Part shown: piece after piece, positions 10,508-17,492 of the stretch
Position numbering within the stretch: the stretch's first letter is position 1
How the letters are laid out: every line of letters starts with the position of its first letter
Source: Dehalococcoidia bacterium
GTDB lineage: Bacteria; Chloroflexota; Dehalococcoidia; UBA2979
NCBI GenBank assembly: GCA_965237865.1
Contig: OZ250164.1
Location: forward strand, 2,440,142-2,504,141
Direction: 5' to 3'
Length of the DNA stretch: 64,000 nt
The notes under the pieces: model-generated
Told to the model about the DNA's origin: nothing
Databases searched by the model: none
What the model saw: only the letters and a program-made list of their open reading frames with translations
Position numbers and translations under genes: made by a program

Positions 10508-10870
10508 TCCGATCCCCTCTCCCCTGGCGGGAGAGGGTTAGGGTGAGGGGGATTCCGGGCGCCGCAGCGCCCTCCGATCCCCTCTCCCGCGGCGGGAGAG
10601 AGGGTCAGGGGACTCCGAGGCCGATCGCGTGTCGCCTGCAGGGGACTGCGCCCCCCACACCCCCATCCCGGACGAGCGCGCTGCGCGGCTCTGGCCCACC
10701 CACCCACCCTCGGATTTCTTTTCTGTGGGGGCTGCGCCCCCACGCCCCCACCCGGATCGGCAGCCGGAACAGAGCCTCGAGGGCGCGCCCTCCGATCCCC
10801 TCTCCCGCCAGGGGAGAGGGTGAGGGTGAGGGGGACTCCGGGCGCCGGAGCGCCCTCGGAACGGGAGTTA
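10508..10870 (+). repeat. dispersed mosaic repeat element, copy B (full, with core 10641-10752)
   Basis: Core GGGGACTGCGCCCCCCACACCCCCATCCCGGACGAGCGCGCTGCGCGG...TTCTTTTCTGTGGGGGCTGCGCCCCCAC. Three CCCCTCTCCC-N-GGGAGAGGGT(G/T)AGGG modules. Sits between convergent gene ends. Confidence 0.85.
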
Positions 10871-10929: not shown

Positions 10930-11679
10930 CTACTGGCCCTGCCAGACGGGGTCGCGCTTCTCGGCGAAGGCCTTCGGGCCCTCCTTCGAGTCTTCCGAGG
11001 CGTGCACGACCTTGCTGACCCAGGTGCCGAGGCGAAGCGCCTCGTCGATCTTGGCCAGCCGCCACTCCTGGATCTGCGCCTTTGTGCCCTCCACGGAGAG
11101 CGGGGCGTTCTCGATAATCATCTCCGCGATCTCGATCGCCCGGGGGATCAGTGCGTCCGGTTCGAGCACCTCGGTGACGATGCCCCACTCCAGCGCCTGC
11201 TGCGGCTCGATGCGGTCCGCGGTGAGCAGGATGTAGTTGGCCGCCGAGAGCCCGATCACCCTCGCGAGGTGCTTCGTCGCGTAACCGGCCATGATCCCGC
11301 GCTTCGGCTCGAACAGGCCGAAGTAGGACGCCGTCGAGCAGATCCGGATGTCGCAGTCGAGTGCGGTCTCCATCCCGCCGCCCACGGCGAGCCCGTTGAT
11401 GGCCGCGATGAACGGCTTCGAGTTCCCCGAGTACGGATAGGTCGCTCCGAACTGCCCCTTGAAGGTGCCCTCCGCCATCTCCCGGAGGTCGCCGCCCGCG
11501 CAGAACGCGCGCCCGGAGCCGGTCACGATGCCGACGCGCATCTTCGGGTCGTTGCTGAAGTCCTCGATCGCCTCGGTCAACTGGTTGATCAACTGGCCGC
11601 CGAGGGCGTTGAGCCGCTCGGGGCGGTTGTAGGTGAAGATCGCGTAGTTGTCGCGCTTGTCGTAGATCAGGTCCGGCAT
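10930..11679 (-). CDS. enoyl-CoA hydratase/isomerase (crotonase family)
   Basis: Crotonase fold signatures (AFCAGGDL, LAVGGGMETALDCDIRI). Start set at MPDLIYD (ATG 11677-11679) with a GGAG RBS. The upstream part of the 415-aa ORF is a non-coding extension. Confidence 0.8.
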   Translation of the reverse strand: MPDLIYDKRDNYAIFTYNRPERLNALGGQLINQLTEAIEDFSNDPKMRVGIVTGSGRAFCAGGDLREMAEGTFKGQFGATYPYSGNSKPFIAAINGLAVGGGMETALDCDIRICSTASYFGLFEPKRGIMAGYATKHLARVIGLSAANYILLTADRIEPQQALEWGIVTEVLEPDALIPRAIEIAEMIIENAPLSVEGTKAQIQEWRLAKIDEALRLGTWVSKVVHASEDSKEGPKAFAEKRDPVWQGQ

Positions 11680-11760
11680 CGCCGCATCTCCTCGCTCGCG
11701 CGCGCAGGGTACCCTGTCGGGGCGGCCAATGGGCAGGCCGCACGCGGGGCGGACGGGACG

Positions 11761-12339
11761 ATGGTTGATTCGACAGACGTGGCCCTTCACCTGGACCTCG
11801 AGCGCCTGGAGGCGGGCCTCGACCACATCCGCCGGTCCCCGGCGGACGACGGCCTGCTCCTGATGATCGTCAGACGGCCCGACGTCGACCGGCGCGAGGT
11901 CGTCGAGGAAGGCGGCCTCGACGTTGCGGTCGGCCTCGTTGGTGACAACTGGAAGGACCGCGCAAGCTCGAGCAGCGCCGACGGCGGACCACATCCCGAG
12001 GCGCAGCTCACGATCATCAACTCCCGCGTGCTCGACCTCGTGGCGCAGTCCGGGGACCGCTGGCCGCTCGCAGGCGATCAGCTGGTGATCGACCTCGACC
12101 TGAGCGCGGAGAACCTGCCGCCCGGGACGCGCCTGTCCATTGGCTCCGCGGTGATCGAGATCACCGCGAAGCCGCACACCGGCTGCGCGAAGTTCGCCGG
12201 CCGCTTTGGCAACGACGCGCTCCGCTTCGTCAGCACCCCGCTGGCGATGGAGCTGCGCCTGCGAGGCGTCAACACCCGTGTCGTGCAGTCGGGCACGATC
12301 CGCGCCGGAGATGCGGTCGCGAAGATCGCGGCGCCATGA
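11761..12339 (+). CDS. MOSC domain-containing protein
   Basis: C-terminal PGTRLSIGSAVIEITAKPHTGCAKFAGRFGNDALRF is typical of MOSC (MoCo sulfurase C-terminal) domains. ATG 11761. Stop overlaps the next gene (ATGA). Confidence 0.75.
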   Translation: MVDSTDVALHLDLERLEAGLDHIRRSPADDGLLLMIVRRPDVDRREVVEEGGLDVAVGLVGDNWKDRASSSSADGGPHPEAQLTIINSRVLDLVAQSGDRWPLAGDQLVIDLDLSAENLPPGTRLSIGSAVIEITAKPHTGCAKFAGRFGNDALRFVSTPLAMELRLRGVNTRVVQSGTIRAGDAVAKIAAP

Positions 12340-12791
12340 CCGACGAACGCGCCGACAGCGGCCCGGAGAGCGGCGCGGACAACCGGCAGGACGCGGTCCT
12401 CGAGGCCAACGCGGCGTTCTACCGCGCTTTCGCCGAGCGCGACCTGGAGGCGATGGACCGGCTCTGGGCGCGCGAGGCGCCGGTCGCCTGCACGCACCCC
12501 GCGTGGACCGTGCTGACCGGGCGCGACGACGTGCTGAAGAGCTGGGAGGGCATCCTCACCAACCCGGACGCGCCGACGATCGAGGTGCGGGACGCCATCG
12601 CGCACCGCCTCGGCGACACGGCGATCGTGCTCTGTCGCGAGATCGTGCAGGGCGCGCCGGCCGAGGCGACCAACGTCTTCGTGCTCGAGGGCGGCGAGTG
12701 GCGCATCGCGCACCACCACGCCAGCGCGATCGCGCGCTTCCTCGTCTCCCGCTCCGTGGAGACGGACCCCTTCCGCGACCGCCGCAACTAG
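12336..12791 (+). CDS. SnoaL-like/NTF2-like (DUF4440-type) protein
   Basis: 151 aa with an NTF2-like fold composition. The last 37 nt, including the stop, lie inside the left 72-bp direct repeat. Confidence 0.65.
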   Translation: MTDERADSGPESGADNRQDAVLEANAAFYRAFAERDLEAMDRLWAREAPVACTHPAWTVLTGRDDVLKSWEGILTNPDAPTIEVRDAIAHRLGDTAIVLCREIVQGAPAEATNVFVLEGGEWRIAHHHASAIARFLVSRSVETDPFRDRRN

Positions 12792-12826
12792 CGACGGTTG
12801 TCCGCCGCTACAGCGCGAGGCCGGGC
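12755..12826. repeat. 72-bp perfect direct repeat, left copy (attL-like), bounding the low-GC island
   Basis: Identical to 15527-15598: cgtggagacggaccccttccgcgaccgccgcaactagcgacggttgtccgccgctacagcgcgaggccgggc. Contains the convergent stop codons of the SnoaL-like and ybaK-like genes and an imperfect hairpin TAGCGACGG-ttgt-CCGCCGCTA. Confidence 0.9.
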
Positions 12827-12855
12827 CGCCGCCACGCCCGATGTCGATGCTCAGT

Positions 12856-13407
12856 CTATTCTCTTGAAGCCTCGATCTCCTTGTCTAGAGAGCGGGCTGT
12901 CAGATTTGCAACTATGGACTTGACATCTAAGTTCCGGAGTCGCAGGTATGCAGATATTTCTGGGATAACAGTAACTGATTCTTTGCCCACGCAACTCAAG
13001 CGCAAATGCGTGTTCAATTCTGCGGTTCTTATTGCGATCTCGAGTACAGCAGGCGGTGCGAGTACGTAAAGGCCTACTGCATGAGGCAACCCAGAATCAT
13101 GCACGAGTGCAGTCGGAGAAACCAGTACTGGTAAAATATGCGCCTTCTCATCTCCATCAGCTAGATTCTTTCTCACCCAGTTCACATGGCCCGTAGCCTC
13201 GAGCAATTCAGTCTTCGAGAGTTTCGAGCCCGGGCTCTTGCCGGTCTTTGCTTCGAACACTAGATGAGTCCCGTCAGAGAACGACCAAACGCAATCCGGT
13301 GCGCCATCGTCGGTGGGACGGCTCGTATCAGCGCCAAGCGCATTGCCCAACTCTTCGAGCCCCTGATGATAGGGGGTAGCTTCCGCCTGGCCAAGCCTCC
13401 GAAGCAT
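12856..13407 (-). CDS. PD-(D/E)xK nuclease-like small protein (island gene 2)
   Basis: Canonical PD...(14 aa)...EAK motif (GAPDCVWSFSDGTHLVFEAKTG). First in-frame ATG is 13405-13407. The open frame continues protein-like up to the helicase stop (13520) with a strong GAAGGAG SD overlapping that stop, so the true start may be non-canonical or the two ORFs may be a frameshifted fusion. The ORF-track extent to 13668 begins at TTG inside the helicase. Confidence 0.55.
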   Translation of the reverse strand: MLRRLGQAEATPYHQGLEELGNALGADTSRPTDDGAPDCVWSFSDGTHLVFEAKTGKSPGSKLSKTELLEATGHVNWVRKNLADGDEKAHILPVLVSPTALVHDSGLPHAVGLYVLAPPAVLEIAIRTAELNTHLRLSCVGKESVTVIPEISAYLRLRNLDVKSIVANLTARSLDKEIEASRE

Positions 13408-13519
13408 TTCTGCCTTGCGGTTCTCAAACTGGGGACCTGCCCATCCGGCAGAATCGAGATATGCCCAAACTTCCTCCTCATTGTCGGCAAGCTCACTATC
13501 CTGGCCAATCTCTTCTCCT

Positions 13520-15430
13520 TCAACAGCGGCCAGAGAGCTCGCTAGGAAACCCCGATTGGTCCCGCAGGCAATCGCCCTTTCTGAGACAGTCGGCGGCGGT
13601 TCCGGTCTCCCCCTGCCTACACGACGACATCGCCGCCAAGTACCACCACCAGGCTCGATACCCCGCAAGCTCCGGTGCGGAAACTTGATCGGCGACCTGA
13701 CGCGCGGCCTCGTAGGCCCCGAGCCAGTGGCCGTCCCACGCCCGTTGGGCGAAACGGATCTCAGTGCTCACCACACCGCGAAGTTGGTCATGGAAGGCTG
13801 TGCCCGTCGCAGCCTCTTGTTCCTCTCGCAACTCAGCGACCAGCCGGTCGGCTTCTGCTCGGTATGAATCGTCTGTAAGGAGACCACGTATCATTTCAGT
13901 AAGGTCGTCAGGACTCGTAGCAAAGTCGCGAGTCTTGTTCATTCCCCATTTGACTTCGGCCTGCACGTCCGGTGGGAGGCTTCCGATCACGCTCGCAGTG
14001 CTGGACGCGTCCACGAGGCGTTGACCGAGCCAGAAGACCACTGCGTAGTCCGTATCACCTCGCGTGCAGCGTCCAAGGCCCTGGACAAGACGCGTCCTCA
14101 GGCGACTGCGGAGCACCGGTCCGCAGCGCCATTGACTTAGCAGGTTCCGCTCTAGCGGCGAGAGCGCCGTCGGAGCACCGGCCATCACCAGCAGTCGACA
14201 ATCTTCGTGCGGTAGGTCGATCCCATCGTAGCGACTGAGGGCGAGCACAGCGTTCTGTTTGCTCGTGAAGGGCTCAAGCGATTTTCCGATGGCATCCGCG
14301 CGCAGAACCTCCGCAGCGGGTTCTACGCTCGATGCTAGGGAATTCGCTTCCAACGTTGCACGATACGATGAAGGGGCTAGAAGCAAAGCCCGGCGAGGAA
14401 CTAGCTCTTGGAATGTTCTCGTAACCAAATCCGAAGCTGTCTCCGTGTTCGCGTACATCTCTGGAACGAAAATGAAGCGCCGACCAGAGTGCTGATATTC
14501 GGCTCGAAGTCCGACGGGCTCTTCGATGCCGTATGCCCGGCGGAGGTCGTGCATGCTACCTAGGGTGGCAGACAGAAAGATTCTTTGACGTGTTTCAGCG
14601 AATGGGGCGTGAGACCAAGTCGGAGGAATCAACGGACGGATTGTGATCTCGACAGACGAAACTAGGATCAGGCAAGCATCCAGCTGGTCCCGTATCTGGC
14701 TCCACGCGTAACGGAGATCACCCCGCTCCGCGTCGAGCGCTTCCGTTAGTTCGGCCGTACAAGCGGGACGCATTGATACATCGACGAGGAACGGGTCAGA
14801 GCCTGGGTCGTTCGTATCCTCCAGCCTACGCCGCTGTCGTTCGTCCATAGCCGGTAAGAGAGCTGTCGCCAGCCTTGAGTAGAGCTGAGCATTGGTGCTG
14901 CGCGATACTGACACGGACCACATCGAGGCCACGTAGTCTTCGCCGCCATGAACGTCGTCGAGCACGACAAGCTCCACGTTCTTGATGATCGGATTCACGT
15001 TGAACATATTCGAGTAAGTTGAGATAGCCACCGCATCAGCCGTACGGAAGCGCCCCTCGGCTATCGGATCGCGTGAGCCGGACGGCCCCGAGACATCTGC
15101 GCAGTCGAATCCGCTCCTATTCGCTTCAGCCAGTACTTGGGACGCCAGCTGATTCGTCAGCGTGAGATAGGCCGTTGGCCTCTGGTAGGTTCTGCGGCAC
15201 CACTCAGCTATCGCGAGACCCACGGTAGTCTTGCCGGTACCAGTGGGCAGCTCGATGGCAACGTTTGCGGCTTCATGGTGGTGCTGGTCGTACTGCCGAA
15301 TTACATCTTGTTGTGGACCGCGCAAGAACTCATGCGTCCGCGCCCGATTTCTCGACCCATAGAATGTCGCCTCTACGGAAGCGGGCGCTGATTCTGGTTT
15401 TCCTGTTCGCAAGCTTGGTCGAGCACACAT
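13520..15430 (-). CDS. SF2 DExH-box helicase, ResIII/DinG-like (island gene 1)
   Basis: Motif I IELPTGTGKT, Ia LTNQLASQV, II VVLDDVH (DExH), III FLSATL, VI QGLGRCTRG. 636 aa. Low-GC codon usage unlike its neighbours. Confidence 0.8.
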   Translation of the reverse strand: MCARPSLRTGKPESAPASVEATFYGSRNRARTHEFLRGPQQDVIRQYDQHHHEAANVAIELPTGTGKTTVGLAIAEWCRRTYQRPTAYLTLTNQLASQVLAEANRSGFDCADVSGPSGSRDPIAEGRFRTADAVAISTYSNMFNVNPIIKNVELVVLDDVHGGEDYVASMWSVSVSRSTNAQLYSRLATALLPAMDERQRRRLEDTNDPGSDPFLVDVSMRPACTAELTEALDAERGDLRYAWSQIRDQLDACLILVSSVEITIRPLIPPTWSHAPFAETRQRIFLSATLGSMHDLRRAYGIEEPVGLRAEYQHSGRRFIFVPEMYANTETASDLVTRTFQELVPRRALLLAPSSYRATLEANSLASSVEPAAEVLRADAIGKSLEPFTSKQNAVLALSRYDGIDLPHEDCRLLVMAGAPTALSPLERNLLSQWRCGPVLRSRLRTRLVQGLGRCTRGDTDYAVVFWLGQRLVDASSTASVIGSLPPDVQAEVKWGMNKTRDFATSPDDLTEMIRGLLTDDSYRAEADRLVAELREEQEAATGTAFHDQLRGVVSTEIRFAQRAWDGHWLGAYEAARQVADQVSAPELAGYRAWWWYLAAMSSCRQGETGTAADCLRKGDCLRDQSGFPSELSGRC

Positions 15431-15526
15431 CGTGACCTCTCACAGCATTCGCCATCGCAATTCACGGACCATTGGGTCTAGAACAGTCTACCGTGGCACA
15501 TGCCATCTGAGCGTTTCGCGCTGAGG

Positions 15527-15598
15527 CGTGGAGACGGACCCCTTCCGCGACCGCCGCAACTAGCGACGGTTGTCCGCCGCTACAGCGCGAGGCCGGGC
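15527..15598. repeat. 72-bp perfect direct repeat, right copy (attR-like)
   Basis: Identical to 12755-12826. Contains the authentic 3' end of the ybaK-like gene and a remnant 3' end of the SnoaL gene. Confidence 0.9.
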
Positions 15599-16071
15599 AC
15601 GACCTCGGCGTTCGGGAGGCGCAGCAGCGCCGAGGGCGCGACCGCGAGCTTCGTCGAGCGGCCGCCGCCGCCCACGATCACCTCGTCGAGGTCCATGACG
15701 CGCTCGTCGATGTAGAGCGCCAGATCCTCGGGCAGGCCGAACGGGGTGACGCCGCCGATCAGCATGCCGGTCAGCTCGCGCGTCTCCTCGGGCGAGGCGA
15801 ACGAGGCCTTGCGCACGCCCAGCAGCGGGCGCACCGCGTGGTTGACGTCGAGCCGCGTGGTCGCCAGCACGAGGCAGGCGCAGTAGCGCAACTCGCCGCG
15901 CTTGGAGACGACGATGATGGTGTTGCCGGAGGTCTCCGGCGGGTAGCCGTAGTGCTCGCAGAACGCCGCCGTGTCCGCCAGTTCCGGATCGACCTCGATC
16001 AGCTCGTAGGACTCGCCGAGGGCGTCCAGCGCCGCGAGGGCGCGCGCCGCCGGGTCGTCGCCGGACGTCAT
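15580..16071 (-). CDS. YbaK/ProX-like aminoacyl-tRNA (Cys-tRNA(Pro)) deacylase
   Basis: 163 aa with a YbaK-fold signature (IIVVSKRGELRYCACLV...GMLIGGVTPFG). Confidence 0.75.
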   Translation of the reverse strand: MTSGDDPAARALAALDALGESYELIEVDPELADTAAFCEHYGYPPETSGNTIIVVSKRGELRYCACLVLATTRLDVNHAVRPLLGVRKASFASPEETRELTGMLIGGVTPFGLPEDLALYIDERVMDLDEVIVGGGGRSTKLAVAPSALLRLPNAEVVPGLAL

Positions 16072-16182
16072 CGCTCGCTCCCGTCGCTCAGTCGCCGACC
16101 GGTGGTGCGCAGCCGCACCCGGCCACGTTGCGTGTTAGCTCGCATGTGCTACTCTCCGGTCCCGAACTCACCAGGAGGAATC

Positions 16183-16626
16183 ATGCCAGACGTCCAGCCC
16201 ATCCCCGACGGCTACACCGCGATCACGCCCTACCTCGTCGCCGAGGACGCATCGGGCCTCATCGACTTCCTCACGAACGCCTTCGGCGCCATCGAGCGCA
16301 TGCGCATGCCCATGCCCGACGGCTCCGTCGCCCACGCCGAGGTCGAGATTGGCGGCGCCGCCGTCATGCTCGGCTCCGCCATGCCCCCCGAGTTCCCGCC
16401 CACCAGCGCGCAGACCCACCTCTACGTCGAGGATGTCGACGGGGCCTACGCCCAGGCCCTGAGTGCGGGAGCCGCCGGCGTGGCCGAGCCGGCCGACCAG
16501 TTCTACGGCGACCGCATCGCCCGCGTGATCGACCCCGCCGGAAACACCTGGTCGATCGCCACCCACATCGAGGACGTGACCGACGAGCAGATCATGGAGC
16601 GCATGGCCGCGATGGGCGAAGGCTAG
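16183..16626 (+). CDS. VOC family protein (glyoxalase/PhnB-like)
   Basis: ATG 16183 after an AGGAGGA RBS. 147 aa, glyoxalase-fold composition (HAEVEIGGAAVMLG...GDRIARVIDPAGNTWSI). Confidence 0.75.
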   Translation: MPDVQPIPDGYTAITPYLVAEDASGLIDFLTNAFGAIERMRMPMPDGSVAHAEVEIGGAAVMLGSAMPPEFPPTSAQTHLYVEDVDGAYAQALSAGAAGVAEPADQFYGDRIARVIDPAGNTWSIATHIEDVTDEQIMERMAAMGEG

Positions 16627-17492
16627 CCGCCGTCTGGCCGCGCCGCCTCCATGAAGGTGCGCAGCGCGTCGATGTGATCGCCGGGCGTCGCCAGCCCGAG
16701 GTCCATCGTGAGCACGTGGACGCGGTCCGCGCCCGCCTCCTGCAGCCGCTCGGCGAAGGCGGCCTGCTCCTCGGGAGCACCGTGGACCGAGACGGAGGTG
16801 GCGATGCCGATCTCCGCGGGGTCGCGGCCCGCGCGCTGCGCCGCCTCGCGGATCGCCTCGACGCTGCGCCCAAGAAACTCCAGGTCGCCCCGGCCCGCGA
16901 TCCAGCCGTCGCCGATGCGCCCGATGCGGTCGAGCACGACCTGCGCGGTGCCGCCCATCCAGATCGGGATCGAGCGGCCCGGGCGCGGGTTGATGCCCGC
17001 GGCCGGGACGCGGTCGAAGCGCCCCTCGAACTCCACGATCGGCTCCGACCAGAGCCGCCTCAGCAGGCCCACCTGCTCCTCGAGACGCCGCCCGCGCGTG
17101 CTGAAGTCCTGGCCCAGCGACTCGTACTCGAGGTAGTTCCAGCCGCTGCCGACGCCGAGGATCAGCCGCCCGCCGCTCAGGATATCCACCTCCGCCGCCT
17201 GCTTCGCGACGAGCGCCGTCTGGCGCTGCGGGAGGATCACGACGCCGCTGACCAGCTCGATGCGCTCCGTCAGGCCGGCGAGGTAGCAGAAGAGCGCGAG
17301 CGGTTCGTGGAAGGTGCTCATGTAGGTGTAAGGCCACGTCCCGCCGCGTCCTTCCGGATCGGCGCCGAGCACGTGGTCGTAGGCGAGCAGGTAGTCATAG
17401 CCGAGGGCCTCCACCGCCTGTGCGTAGTCGCGGATCGCGATCGGGTCGATCCCGATTTCGGTCTGGGGGAAGACTGCCCCGTAGCGCATCAA
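16623..17492 (-). CDS. LLM class F420-dependent oxidoreductase
   Basis: 289 aa, luciferase-like monooxygenase fold (TIGR03619-like): VILPQRQTALVAKQAAEVDILSGGRLILGVGSGW. Confidence 0.8.
   Translation of the reverse strand: MMRYGAVFPQTEIGIDPIAIRDYAQAVEALGYDYLLAYDHVLGADPEGRGGTWPYTYMSTFHEPLALFCYLAGLTERIELVSGVVILPQRQTALVAKQAAEVDILSGGRLILGVGSGWNYLEYESLGQDFSTRGRRLEEQVGLLRRLWSEPIVEFEGRFDRVPAAGINPRPGRSIPIWMGGTAQVVLDRIGRIGDGWIAGRGDLEFLGRSVEAIREAAQRAGRDPAEIGIATSVSVHGAPEEQAAFAERLQEAGADRVHVLTMDLGLATPGDHIDALRTFMEAARPDGG

Follow-up and report, generated by a model that had tools for sequence, protein, structure and literature searches.

A probable single-gene anti-phage cassette with a divergent, frameshifted Hna homologue, bounded by a perfect 72-bp repeat, in a Dehalococcoidia genome

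RESULTS

A foreign island lies between two convergent core genes

Our analysis of the window (the whole 64,000-nt stretch of Dehalococcoidia DNA) reveals an inserted island of 2700 bp that lies, as the original prediction had placed it, between the convergent genes SnoaL_3 and YbaK/tRNA_edit, whose stop codons face it. The features of the locus are:

12336–12791, plus strand: left flanking core gene, SnoaL_3/DUF4440 family, syntenic in related Dehalococcoidia genomes
12755–12826, no strand: left copy of a 72-bp repeat, comprising the real SnoaL 3′ end (37 nt, stop TAG at 12789–12791), a 16-nt spacer (12792–12807), and then the last 19 nt of the YbaK-like gene as a pseudo-copy (its stop, complement CTA, at 12808–12810)
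12827–15526, minus strand: inserted island, with an hna-family gene as its sole cargo
12856–13581, minus strand: shifted-frame 3′ part of the gene (241 codons plus stop), comprising the linker and the C-terminal PD-(D/E)xK nuclease (NUC) domain
13246–13299, minus strand: catalytic motif, P95-D96...E110-A111-K112 in the fragment, corresponding to D712/E726/K728 in the repaired protein
~13578–13583, minus strand: frameshift site (+1 nt), in the linker before the nuclease domain
13520–15430, minus strand: 5′ part of the gene, the helicase ORF (636 aa), with SF2 DinG/XPD-like HEL1–HEL2 modules
15431–15526, minus strand: upstream region within the island (96 bp), with a Shine-Dalgarno-like GAGAGG at 15436–15441, 5 nt before the ATG
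15527–15598, no strand: right copy of the 72-bp repeat, comprising the SnoaL 3′ end as a pseudo-copy, then the spacer, and finally the real YbaK-like 3′ end (stop at 15580–15582)
15580–16071, minus strand: right flanking core gene, YbaK/tRNA_edit protein (aminoacyl-tRNA editing domain)

The island is compositionally foreign. Its GC content is 57.8% (local range 52–62%) versus 71.9% for the remainder of the window, its GC3 is 0.52–0.63 versus 0.98 in the flanking genes, and the 64 kb contain no other low-GC patch. The compact, low-GC character proposed for it is real, although its GC content is not as low as the ~50% originally given. No integrase or transposase is present in the island, the hna-family gene being its only content; no terminal inverted repeats are present at its ends; and no tRNA gene that could have served as a target is present in the window. 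A consensus scan of the 96-bp upstream region revealed no sigma-70-type promoter, and the promoter and terminator scan detected nothing in that region or past the stop codon.

The two ORFs are halves of one gene

Together, in colinear order, the two ORFs of the island make up one Hna-family coding sequence that a 1-nt insertion interrupts. In particular, both ORFs match a single PADLOC model, PDC-S28 (846 profile positions in total), at consecutive positions: the helicase ORF matches positions 37–612 (E = 5.6e-81), and the nuclease frame matches positions 678–843 (E = 2.4e-15), with the 3′ part as a whole corresponding to positions ~660–843. A tblastn comparison locates a single frame switch at 13577–13581, and deletion of any single base within 13578–13583 yields an 857-aa ORF colinear with homologues; specifically, deletion of 13582 or 13583 yields the junction DCLERAIACGTN, where the closest homologue has DCLERAVGCGVN. 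As sequenced, the last ~19 codons of the helicase ORF are out of frame after the frameshift and run to a premature stop (13520–13522), and the two ORFs overlap by 149 nt in different frames. Most of the best homologues, 112 of 120, are single proteins and at least 800 aa long. What had been read as two co-directional genes is one frameshifted gene on the minus strand, and the 'reversed gene order' and 'shorter helicase' of the original prediction are artefacts, because a split fusion protein was read as two genes.

Since the frame is interrupted within the linker that joins the helicase module to the nuclease module, two folded polypeptides are conceivable; moreover, helicase–nuclease pairs such as HamAB exist (PMC12278908). 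A genuine two-gene Hachiman-like system, with a helicase and a small nuclease translated separately, is nevertheless very unlikely. The nuclease frame has no credible start of its own: a TTG at 13668 has a Shine-Dalgarno spacing of 1 nt, and an ATG at 13407 has no Shine-Dalgarno sequence and would cost the first 58 residues. The overlap of the frames and the prevalence of fused homologues also argue against separate translation, as does the lack of a conserved split site in the family. A recurrent natural split was considered and rejected, as the breaks in the short homologues L194 and L195 fall elsewhere and both lie on contigs of 2x-coverage long-read data.

Hachiman had been named as the nearest analogue, a proposal that found no support: Pfam, PADLOC, and the fold search gave no DUF1837/HamA or HamB signal, with no Pfam match for the small ORF, no Hachiman model match in PADLOC, and no HamA among the fold matches. 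Hachiman resembles the locus in coupling an SF2 helicase to a PD-(D/E)xK-type effector nuclease in an anti-phage, DNA/SSB-responsive system, but it comprises two proteins in the order HamA–HamB, with the nuclease gene upstream, whereas the locus has one gene with the helicase part first and a fold closest to Hna. Hachiman is an analogue, not a family-level relative. The locus is a useful reminder that a fusion protein broken by one frameshift can pass for a novel two-gene system in 'reversed order'.

The helicase half retains the SF2 motifs

The prediction of a 636-aa SF2 helicase with motifs I, II, III, and VI holds. Motif I (Walker A, PTGTGKT) comprises residues 62–68 (15227–15247), motif II (DDVH) comprises residues 158–161 (14948–14959), motif III is SAT, and motif VI (QGLGRCTR) comprises residues 450–457; in an alignment of 34 family members, all four fall at family-invariant positions. 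The Pfam families DEAD, ResIII, and Helicase_C_2 score above cut-offs in the helicase ORF, the PADLOC model typeIV_DinG matches over HEL2 (E = 8.7e-22), and the family profile gives ~1e-11 against XPD structures.

Weak model and structure matches to DinG, YoaA, and XPD over the ATPase core would suit a housekeeping repair helicase of the DinG/XPD/YoaA type, working with a partner protein. That reading has a negligible probability and is effectively refuted: the NCBIfam scores are 29.6 bits for YoaA (cut-off 680) and 21 for DinG (cut-off 789), ten syntenic relatives lack the gene, its composition is foreign, and its full-length match is to Hna. CasDinG (type IV-A CRISPR), ExoDinG, and XPD-Rad3 share the DinG/XPD-type helicase core, but they match only partially, over the ATPase core, without full-length similarity and without cas genes near the locus. 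A further difference is that the prototype Hna protein is reported to have no Fe-S cluster (PMC13381803).

The nuclease half has a PD-(D/E)xK fold

The predicted fold of the C-terminal fragment contains a PD-(D/E)xK core (pLDDT 92.5), in agreement with the nuclease fold originally proposed for the small ORF, and its best structural match is Hna (9yhn). Fold prediction was needed for this identification, because the fragment alone matches no Pfam or NCBIfam family and its sequence match to Hna in the PDB is weak (E = 0.15). The PD...EAK motif is present downstream of the helicase as predicted, with a spacing of x13 (D96...E110-A-K112) rather than x14. Residues D712, E726, and K728 of the repaired protein are invariant in the family, and K728 aligns with Hna K729, the residue at which alanine substitution abolishes exonuclease activity (PMC13381803).

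The gene belongs to the Hna family

The island is, with high confidence, a recently acquired single-gene anti-phage cassette carrying a divergent, frameshifted homologue of Hna (PADLOC PDC-S28), a known single-protein system whose name stands for helicase-nuclease abortive infection. The repaired protein matches Hna chain 10uj_A over residues 23–755 (E = 4.4e-29), the family profile A1 matches the same chain over positions 14–806 (E = 4e-62), and hhalign comparison with the pSymA Hna gives a probability of 100 and E = 2.4e-40 over 721 columns (PDB entries 10UJ and 9YKJ are Hna). Authentic Sinorhizobium meliloti Hna (L196:2983–5517) matches both PDC-S28 sub-models over their full length, PDLC04986 with 1020 bits and PDLC04987 with 400 bits, which shows that the PADLOC candidate PDC-S28 is the Hna family. 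The protein shares ~22% sequence identity with the prototype and no more than 52% with any database sequence.

Comparison with the prototype (S. meliloti pSymA, SMa2245; PDB 10UJ/9YKJ/9YHN) reveals the same domain order, HEL1–HEL2 followed by PD-(D/E)xK; a similar length, 845 aa versus 857 aa for the repaired protein, with colinearity over ~720–790 positions; and shared Walker A, DDxH, motif VI, and nuclease D...ExK motifs. Both are single-gene cassettes without partner genes, and both show evidence of horizontal transfer. The differences are that the window gene falls in PDLC04987, the second PDC-S28 sub-model (PDLC04986 for the prototype), that its host belongs to the Dehalococcoidia (Chloroflexota) rather than the proteobacteria, and that its frame is broken by the 1-nt insertion, leaving the nuclease unfused as sequenced.

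S. meliloti Hna confers abortive-infection phage resistance and is an SSB-triggered 3′–5′ ssDNA exonuclease held as an ATP-inhibited dimer, with a published mechanism and cryo-EM structures (PMC13381803), and hna undergoes extensive horizontal transfer (PMC12445080). By analogy with the S. meliloti protein, an intact copy at this locus would be an ATP-bound, auto-inhibited dimer; a phage single-stranded-DNA-binding protein would destabilise the dimer on infection; and the freed processive 3′–5′ ssDNA exonuclease would degrade DNA, aborting infection. Trigger, substrate polarity, and regulation are extrapolated here from the prototype, since identity to it is only ~22%.

The defence role originally proposed is supported, as the family is validated as anti-phage and the closest homologues lie in classic defence islands, adjoining CBASS CD-NTase, RES, AIPR, SIR2, and methylase genes; the description of the cassette as uncharacterised is not, as its family has a published mechanism and structures. 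For defence biology the result is an ordinary one, adding a divergent Hna homologue in Chloroflexota.

The copy as sequenced is most likely inactive

As sequenced, the gene would yield a 636-aa helicase without its nuclease. Because of this, and because no convincing independent nuclease start is present, this copy is, on its sequence, most likely inactive: either the gene has only recently become a pseudogene, or it is otherwise intact and the frameshift is a base-calling error. The +1 frameshift ends the helicase frame at 13520, so that no uninterrupted helicase–nuclease polypeptide is encoded, and we therefore class the gene as an allele with a frameshift, possibly a pseudogene, and do not count it as a system of demonstrable function.

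It is possible, though we do not consider it probable, that the extra base reflects an error in sequencing or in the consensus and that the genome carries an intact 857-aa Hna homologue and a working defence gene. All family-invariant residues are intact in both halves and no further stops or frameshifts are present; the insertion of the island was very recent (see below), leaving little time for decay; and the other truncated homologues lie on 2x-coverage long-read contigs, from which it follows that indel errors do occur in such data. Against an error, the context of the extra base, CTCAGAAAGGG, contains no long homopolymer, only runs of 3, which is a mild argument for a real mutation, and the source is a 3.48-Mb contig, suggesting a well-covered assembly. 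In addition, abortive-infection nucleases are often toxic when acquired and are quickly inactivated.

A perfect 72-bp target duplication brackets the island

A perfect direct repeat of 72 bp flanks the island on both sides (12755–12826 and 15527–15598; 100% identity; spacing 2772 bp); it is present in two copies only in the window, with 0 matches expected by chance. The 72 bp are target sequence duplicated by the insertion. We infer that the insertion event was very recent, from the perfect identity of the repeat copies and the un-ameliorated composition of the island. The original prediction started and ended at the outer ends of this repeat, which it did not itself mention. The repeat was also considered as a structured element (terminator or attC-like), an idea rejected because its folding is no better than that of shuffled sequences (z = 0.44).

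The bracketing repeats are attL/attR-like, and the island encodes no tyrosine or serine recombinase. Because no recombinase was identified, the insertion route can only be inferred: most likely, either att-type site-specific recombination would have been supplied in trans, or a circular intermediate would have integrated by a single crossover (Campbell-type integration). The insertion footprint is the feature of more lasting interest, namely a fresh 2.7-kb one-gene island with a perfect 72-bp target duplication and without a recombinase, and it makes the island a clean natural example for how single defence genes get shuttled into hotspots.

CIMEs are cis-mobilisable, integrase-less islands bounded by att repeats. 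The island resembles CIME-type islands in having compact cargo without a recombinase and direct repeats through which the target genes regain their 3′ ends; it differs in that neither a cognate integrase nor a parent element was identified, in that the repeat is 100% target-like, and in that repeat lengths at comparable loci range from 66 to ~281 bp.

The insertion site is a cargo hotspot, and similar footprints occur at other loci

The gap between the convergent genes is a cargo hotspot in this Dehalococcoidia clade. In related Dehalococcoidia with the same synteny, the gap holds other cargo, VapBC or REP elements (the latter detected with a relaxed pattern, a first pattern having found none), and the YbaK-type protein has 91–94% protein identity in ten related Dehalococcoidia MAGs. 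Matches in IMG/VR viral contigs are distant relatives only and give no donor information, because they are only 21–32% identical.

Footprints of a similar kind occur elsewhere: in the relative L003, a 66-nt footprint in the same hotspot surrounds an unrelated 200-aa ORF, without a helicase; in L086, a ~145-bp direct repeat brackets a lone Hna-family gene, without an integrase; and in L129, a ~281-bp repeat brackets an Hna-family gene and a methyltransferase, also without an integrase. An additional ORF inside the L129 repeats was considered as an integrase and ruled out, being the SAM methyltransferase.

The occurrence of repeat-bracketed, integrase-less Hna-family genes in the window, L086, and L129 would suit a reading in which the helicase–nuclease is not cargo but the enzyme that mobilises a novel, compact element with long target duplications. 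We regard this reading as highly improbable. Such repeats occur at ~3–5% of roughly 100 family loci; the L003 footprint surrounds an unrelated ORF and is therefore not tied to hna; terminal inverted repeats are lacking and repeat lengths are highly variable; and for Hna itself a defence phenotype and exonuclease chemistry have been demonstrated, and no strand transfer has been reported (PMC13381803).

With the hna-family gene taken as cargo, we suggest, speculatively and with low confidence, that single cargo genes of the defence or TA type may be moved, both in this lineage and outside it, by an undescribed integrase-less route that leaves long, variable-length target duplications regenerating flanking 3′ ends. 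Candidate agents would be a recombinase system acting in trans or a circle-mediated 'cassette' pathway with a single crossover, in either case targeting convergent-gene gaps. Two further loci, L137 (29 bp, in a tRNA-His T-arm) and L122 (48 bp, AT-rich), have repeats that we treated as equivocal and left out of the repeat count.

A single Hna-family gene in two frames

The low-GC island at 12827–15526 had been read as an uncharacterised system of two genes. Our analysis identifies its cargo as a new, divergent member of a known family, that of Hna (helicase-nuclease abortive infection protein), in an unusual host phylum. Two frames, both on the minus strand, carry the gene as sequenced:

13520–15430, minus strand: helicase ORF, 636 aa, with Pfam domains DEAD, ResIII, and Helicase_C_2
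13668 to 12856, minus strand: open nuclease frame, downstream of the helicase ORF

PADLOC matches both ORFs to one single-gene candidate defence system, PDC-S28, at consecutive positions of its 846-position profile (helicase, 37–612; small ORF, 678–843); in neither Pfam nor NCBIfam does the nuclease frame match a family. Among 5.8 billion proteins searched, the 636-aa product has an exact match on a 3.48-Mb contig; the closest relative beyond it is only 52% identical, and 112 of the 120 best hits are single proteins 800 aa or longer. Four full-length homologues align to the window by tblastn as two colinear segments with a frame change at 13577–13581, and removal of one base at 13578–13583 yields an 857-aa ORF, the junction of which (DCLERAIACGTN) resembles that of the closest homologue (DCLERAVGCGVN). 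The helicase ATG is preceded by GAGAGG at 5-nt spacing; for the nuclease frame, neither candidate start is convincing, as TTG at 13668 has a Shine-Dalgarno sequence only 1 nt away and ATG at 13407 has none. The family has no conserved split, because the few other short homologues examined, L194 and L195, which come from 2x-coverage long-read contigs, break at other positions. The "gene pair", "reversed order", and "shorter helicase" of the original prediction are thus products of a +1 frameshift in one fusion gene.

The repaired 857-aa protein aligns over residues 23–755 with PDB 10uj_A (845 aa; also 9ykj and 9yhn; E = 4.4e-29), and a 34-sequence family profile aligns with 10uj_A over positions 14–806 (E = 4e-62). 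These entries are Sinorhizobium meliloti Hna (PMC13381803). The next-best profile matches, to XPD/Rad3, reach ~1e-11 and cover the N-terminal ATPase core only. We retrieved authentic hna from pSymA (L196:2983–5520, 845 aa), and hhalign of its product with the family profile gives a probability of 100 (E = 2.4e-40, 721 columns, 22% identity). In the reciprocal test, PDC-S28 model PDLC04986 gives authentic Hna a full-length score of 1020 bits, and PDLC04987 gives it 400 bits. PDC-S28 and the Hna family are therefore one and the same, with the window gene on the PDLC04987 branch. Survey hits named PDC-S28, a "phage defence candidate" in PADLOC-DB v2.0.0, can be read as experimentally validated Hna.

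All family-invariant residues are present, in the helicase (Walker A PTGTGKT, DDVH, SAT, and QGLGRCTR) and in the nuclease (P711-D712...E726-A727-K728). Residue K728 of the repaired protein aligns with Hna K729, alanine substitution of which abolishes nuclease activity (PMC13381803). An AlphaFold2 model of the C-terminal fragment (pLDDT 92.5) has as its top structural match the Hna monomer 9yhn (E = 1.3e-6, TMq 0.58), followed by Nt.BspD6I, HindIII, and Hjc, confirming the predicted PD-(D/E)xK nuclease; neither HamA nor Cap4 is among the matches listed. The suggested analogy with Hachiman finds no support in Pfam, PADLOC, or the listed fold matches, and Hachiman, type IV CRISPR CasDinG, and a DinG/XPD/YoaA repair helicase are rejected by the Pfam, PADLOC, NCBIfam, profile, and fold searches. 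Every sequence and fold comparison, the reciprocal test included, places the gene in the Hna/PDC-S28 family. The helicase-nuclease fusion is interrupted as sequenced, so we do not count the locus as a demonstrably functional Hna system.

State of the gene and possible mechanism

The frameshift context, CTCAGAAAGGG, contains no long homopolymer and, apart from the extra base, all features of the gene are intact, a state that, judged from the sequence, would fit either very recent inactivation or an error. We consider it fairly likely that the extra base is a real frameshift. This hna copy is probably inactive as sequenced, because its product would be a helicase without its nuclease.

Characterised Hna is an ATP-bound, auto-inhibited dimer that is triggered by phage SSB, has 3′-5′ ssDNA exonuclease activity, and acts by abortive infection (PMC13381803). 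By homology, an intact copy of the window gene would form an auto-inhibited dimer with ATP bound, phage SSB would destabilise the dimer, and a processive 3′-5′ ssDNA exonuclease would thereby be released, leading to abortive infection. We infer this Hna-like mechanism from a prototype with 22% identity. The closest homologues are set in typical defence islands, next to CD-NTase, RES toxin, SNF2, and HATPase genes (L081) or AIPR, DNA methylase, SIR2, and transposase genes (L083); together with the family assignment, this upholds the defence-type island of the original prediction.

Boundaries of the island

The 2700-bp island has a GC content of 57.8%, above the ~50% first estimated, versus 71.9% in the remaining window; this is ~7 SD under other 2.7-kb windows, and the island is the only such low-GC patch in the 64 kb. 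GC3 is 0.52–0.63 in the island versus 0.98 in the two flanking genes. As predicted, two convergent genes flank the island:

12336–12791, plus strand: SnoaL_3-family gene, left flank, convergent with the YbaK-type gene
12755–12826 and 15527–15598: perfect 72-bp direct repeat, two copies, bracketing the island
15580–16071, minus strand: YbaK-type aminoacyl-tRNA-editing gene, right flank, convergent with the SnoaL_3 gene

The positions 12755 and 15598 of the original prediction are the outer ends of this repeat, which its text omits. The repeat has no further copy in the window, where chance expectation is 0 matches. Its 72 bp are made up of the final 37 nt of the SnoaL gene, 16 nt of spacer, and the final 19 nt of the YbaK-like gene. 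The two stop codons were therefore separated by just those 16 nt before the insertion, which duplicated 72 bp of target. The empty site would have read ...GCGCTGTAG-CGGCGGACAACCGTCG-CTAGTTGCGG..., in single copy. The perfect duplication of host sequence makes an assembly artefact unlikely, since a chimera would not produce one. Terminal inverted repeats are missing from the island, and the 72-bp repeat has no special fold. From translations alone, the ORFs in 10930–12339 and 16170–17492 are presumably ordinary metabolic genes, resembling an enoyl-CoA hydratase, a MOSC-domain protein, a glyoxalase/VOC protein, and an F420-dependent LLM-class oxidoreductase.

Long target duplications at other loci

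We searched ~100 loci of the Hna family for direct repeats on either side of the gene, with the window's 72-bp repeat, which was recovered, as positive control. Two further solid cases (L086 and L129, from unrelated metagenomes) and two equivocal ones (L122 and L137) emerged, and a related Dehalococcoidia locus (L003) has a repeat of its own:

L003, 8574–8639 and 9184–9249: 66-nt direct repeat, bracketing a 610-bp cargo with a 200-aa ORF
L086, 392–540 and 3722–3870: repeat of ~145 bp, 91–93% identity, around a lone hna homologue
L129, 5609–5889 and 10041–10321: repeat of ~281 bp, 92–94% identity, around an hna homologue and a SAM methyltransferase gene

The L086 and L129 repeats duplicate coding sequence of the adjoining gene, in L129 the 3′ end of a DUF1801 gene. 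The L003 copies match at 48 of 66 positions (73% identity; at most 37 in shuffles). The YbaK-like gene's 3′ end lies in the first copy, and the cargo ORF, which has only a weak DUF4145 match, takes its stop codon from the second. The L003 footprint is of the same kind as that in the window, but older. In 1.1 Mb of unrelated control loci from outside the REP-rich clade, no such repeat pairs occur.

None of the islands in the window, L003, L086, and L129 encodes a recombinase, and L086 and L129 lack an integrase. The widely varying duplication lengths count against a fixed-stagger transposase, and the footprint around the non-helicase cargo of L003 counts against Hna as the mobility enzyme. Three routes remain, with none favoured over the others: site-specific recombination of the att type, provided in trans as with CIME-like elements; a single crossover, mediated by RecA, of a circular intermediate carrying the target segment; and end-joining capture at a staggered break.

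A cargo hotspot between the YbaK-like and SnoaL genes

The flanking YbaK-like protein led to ten related Dehalococcoidia (Chloroflexota) MAGs (91–94% amino-acid identity), nine of which keep the convergent YbaK/SnoaL arrangement. The helicase island is found in none of their loci. The gap between the two genes spans 200–1400 bp and varies in content:

L001, L004, L005: GC-rich REP-like palindromes
L002, L008, L009: VapBC pair
L003: VapBC and the extra 200-aa ORF
L006, L010: decayed remnants of such cargo

PIN (E = 1e-14) and RHH/VapB domains confirm the VapBC pair at L002:10543–11207, and VapBC in L002, L008, L009, and L003 lies exactly at the island's site, equivalent to window 12792–12807. 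The varied content thus marks the site as a small cargo hotspot. Discovery potential is confined to the integrase-less, long-duplication footprint, which recurs both at the hotspot and at a few other Hna-family loci.

REP/MITE-like GC-rich palindromic units (CCCCTCTCCC-N3-9-GGGAGAGGG, then TTAGGGTGAGGGGG) also occur in the window at 10510–10840 and at ~2995, 19051, 29693, and 44029, the pattern giving 11 strand-matches at seven window sites, with 0 expected by chance. In L001, L004, and L005 the gap is filled by these same units, which are the source of most background repeat pairs in this clade.
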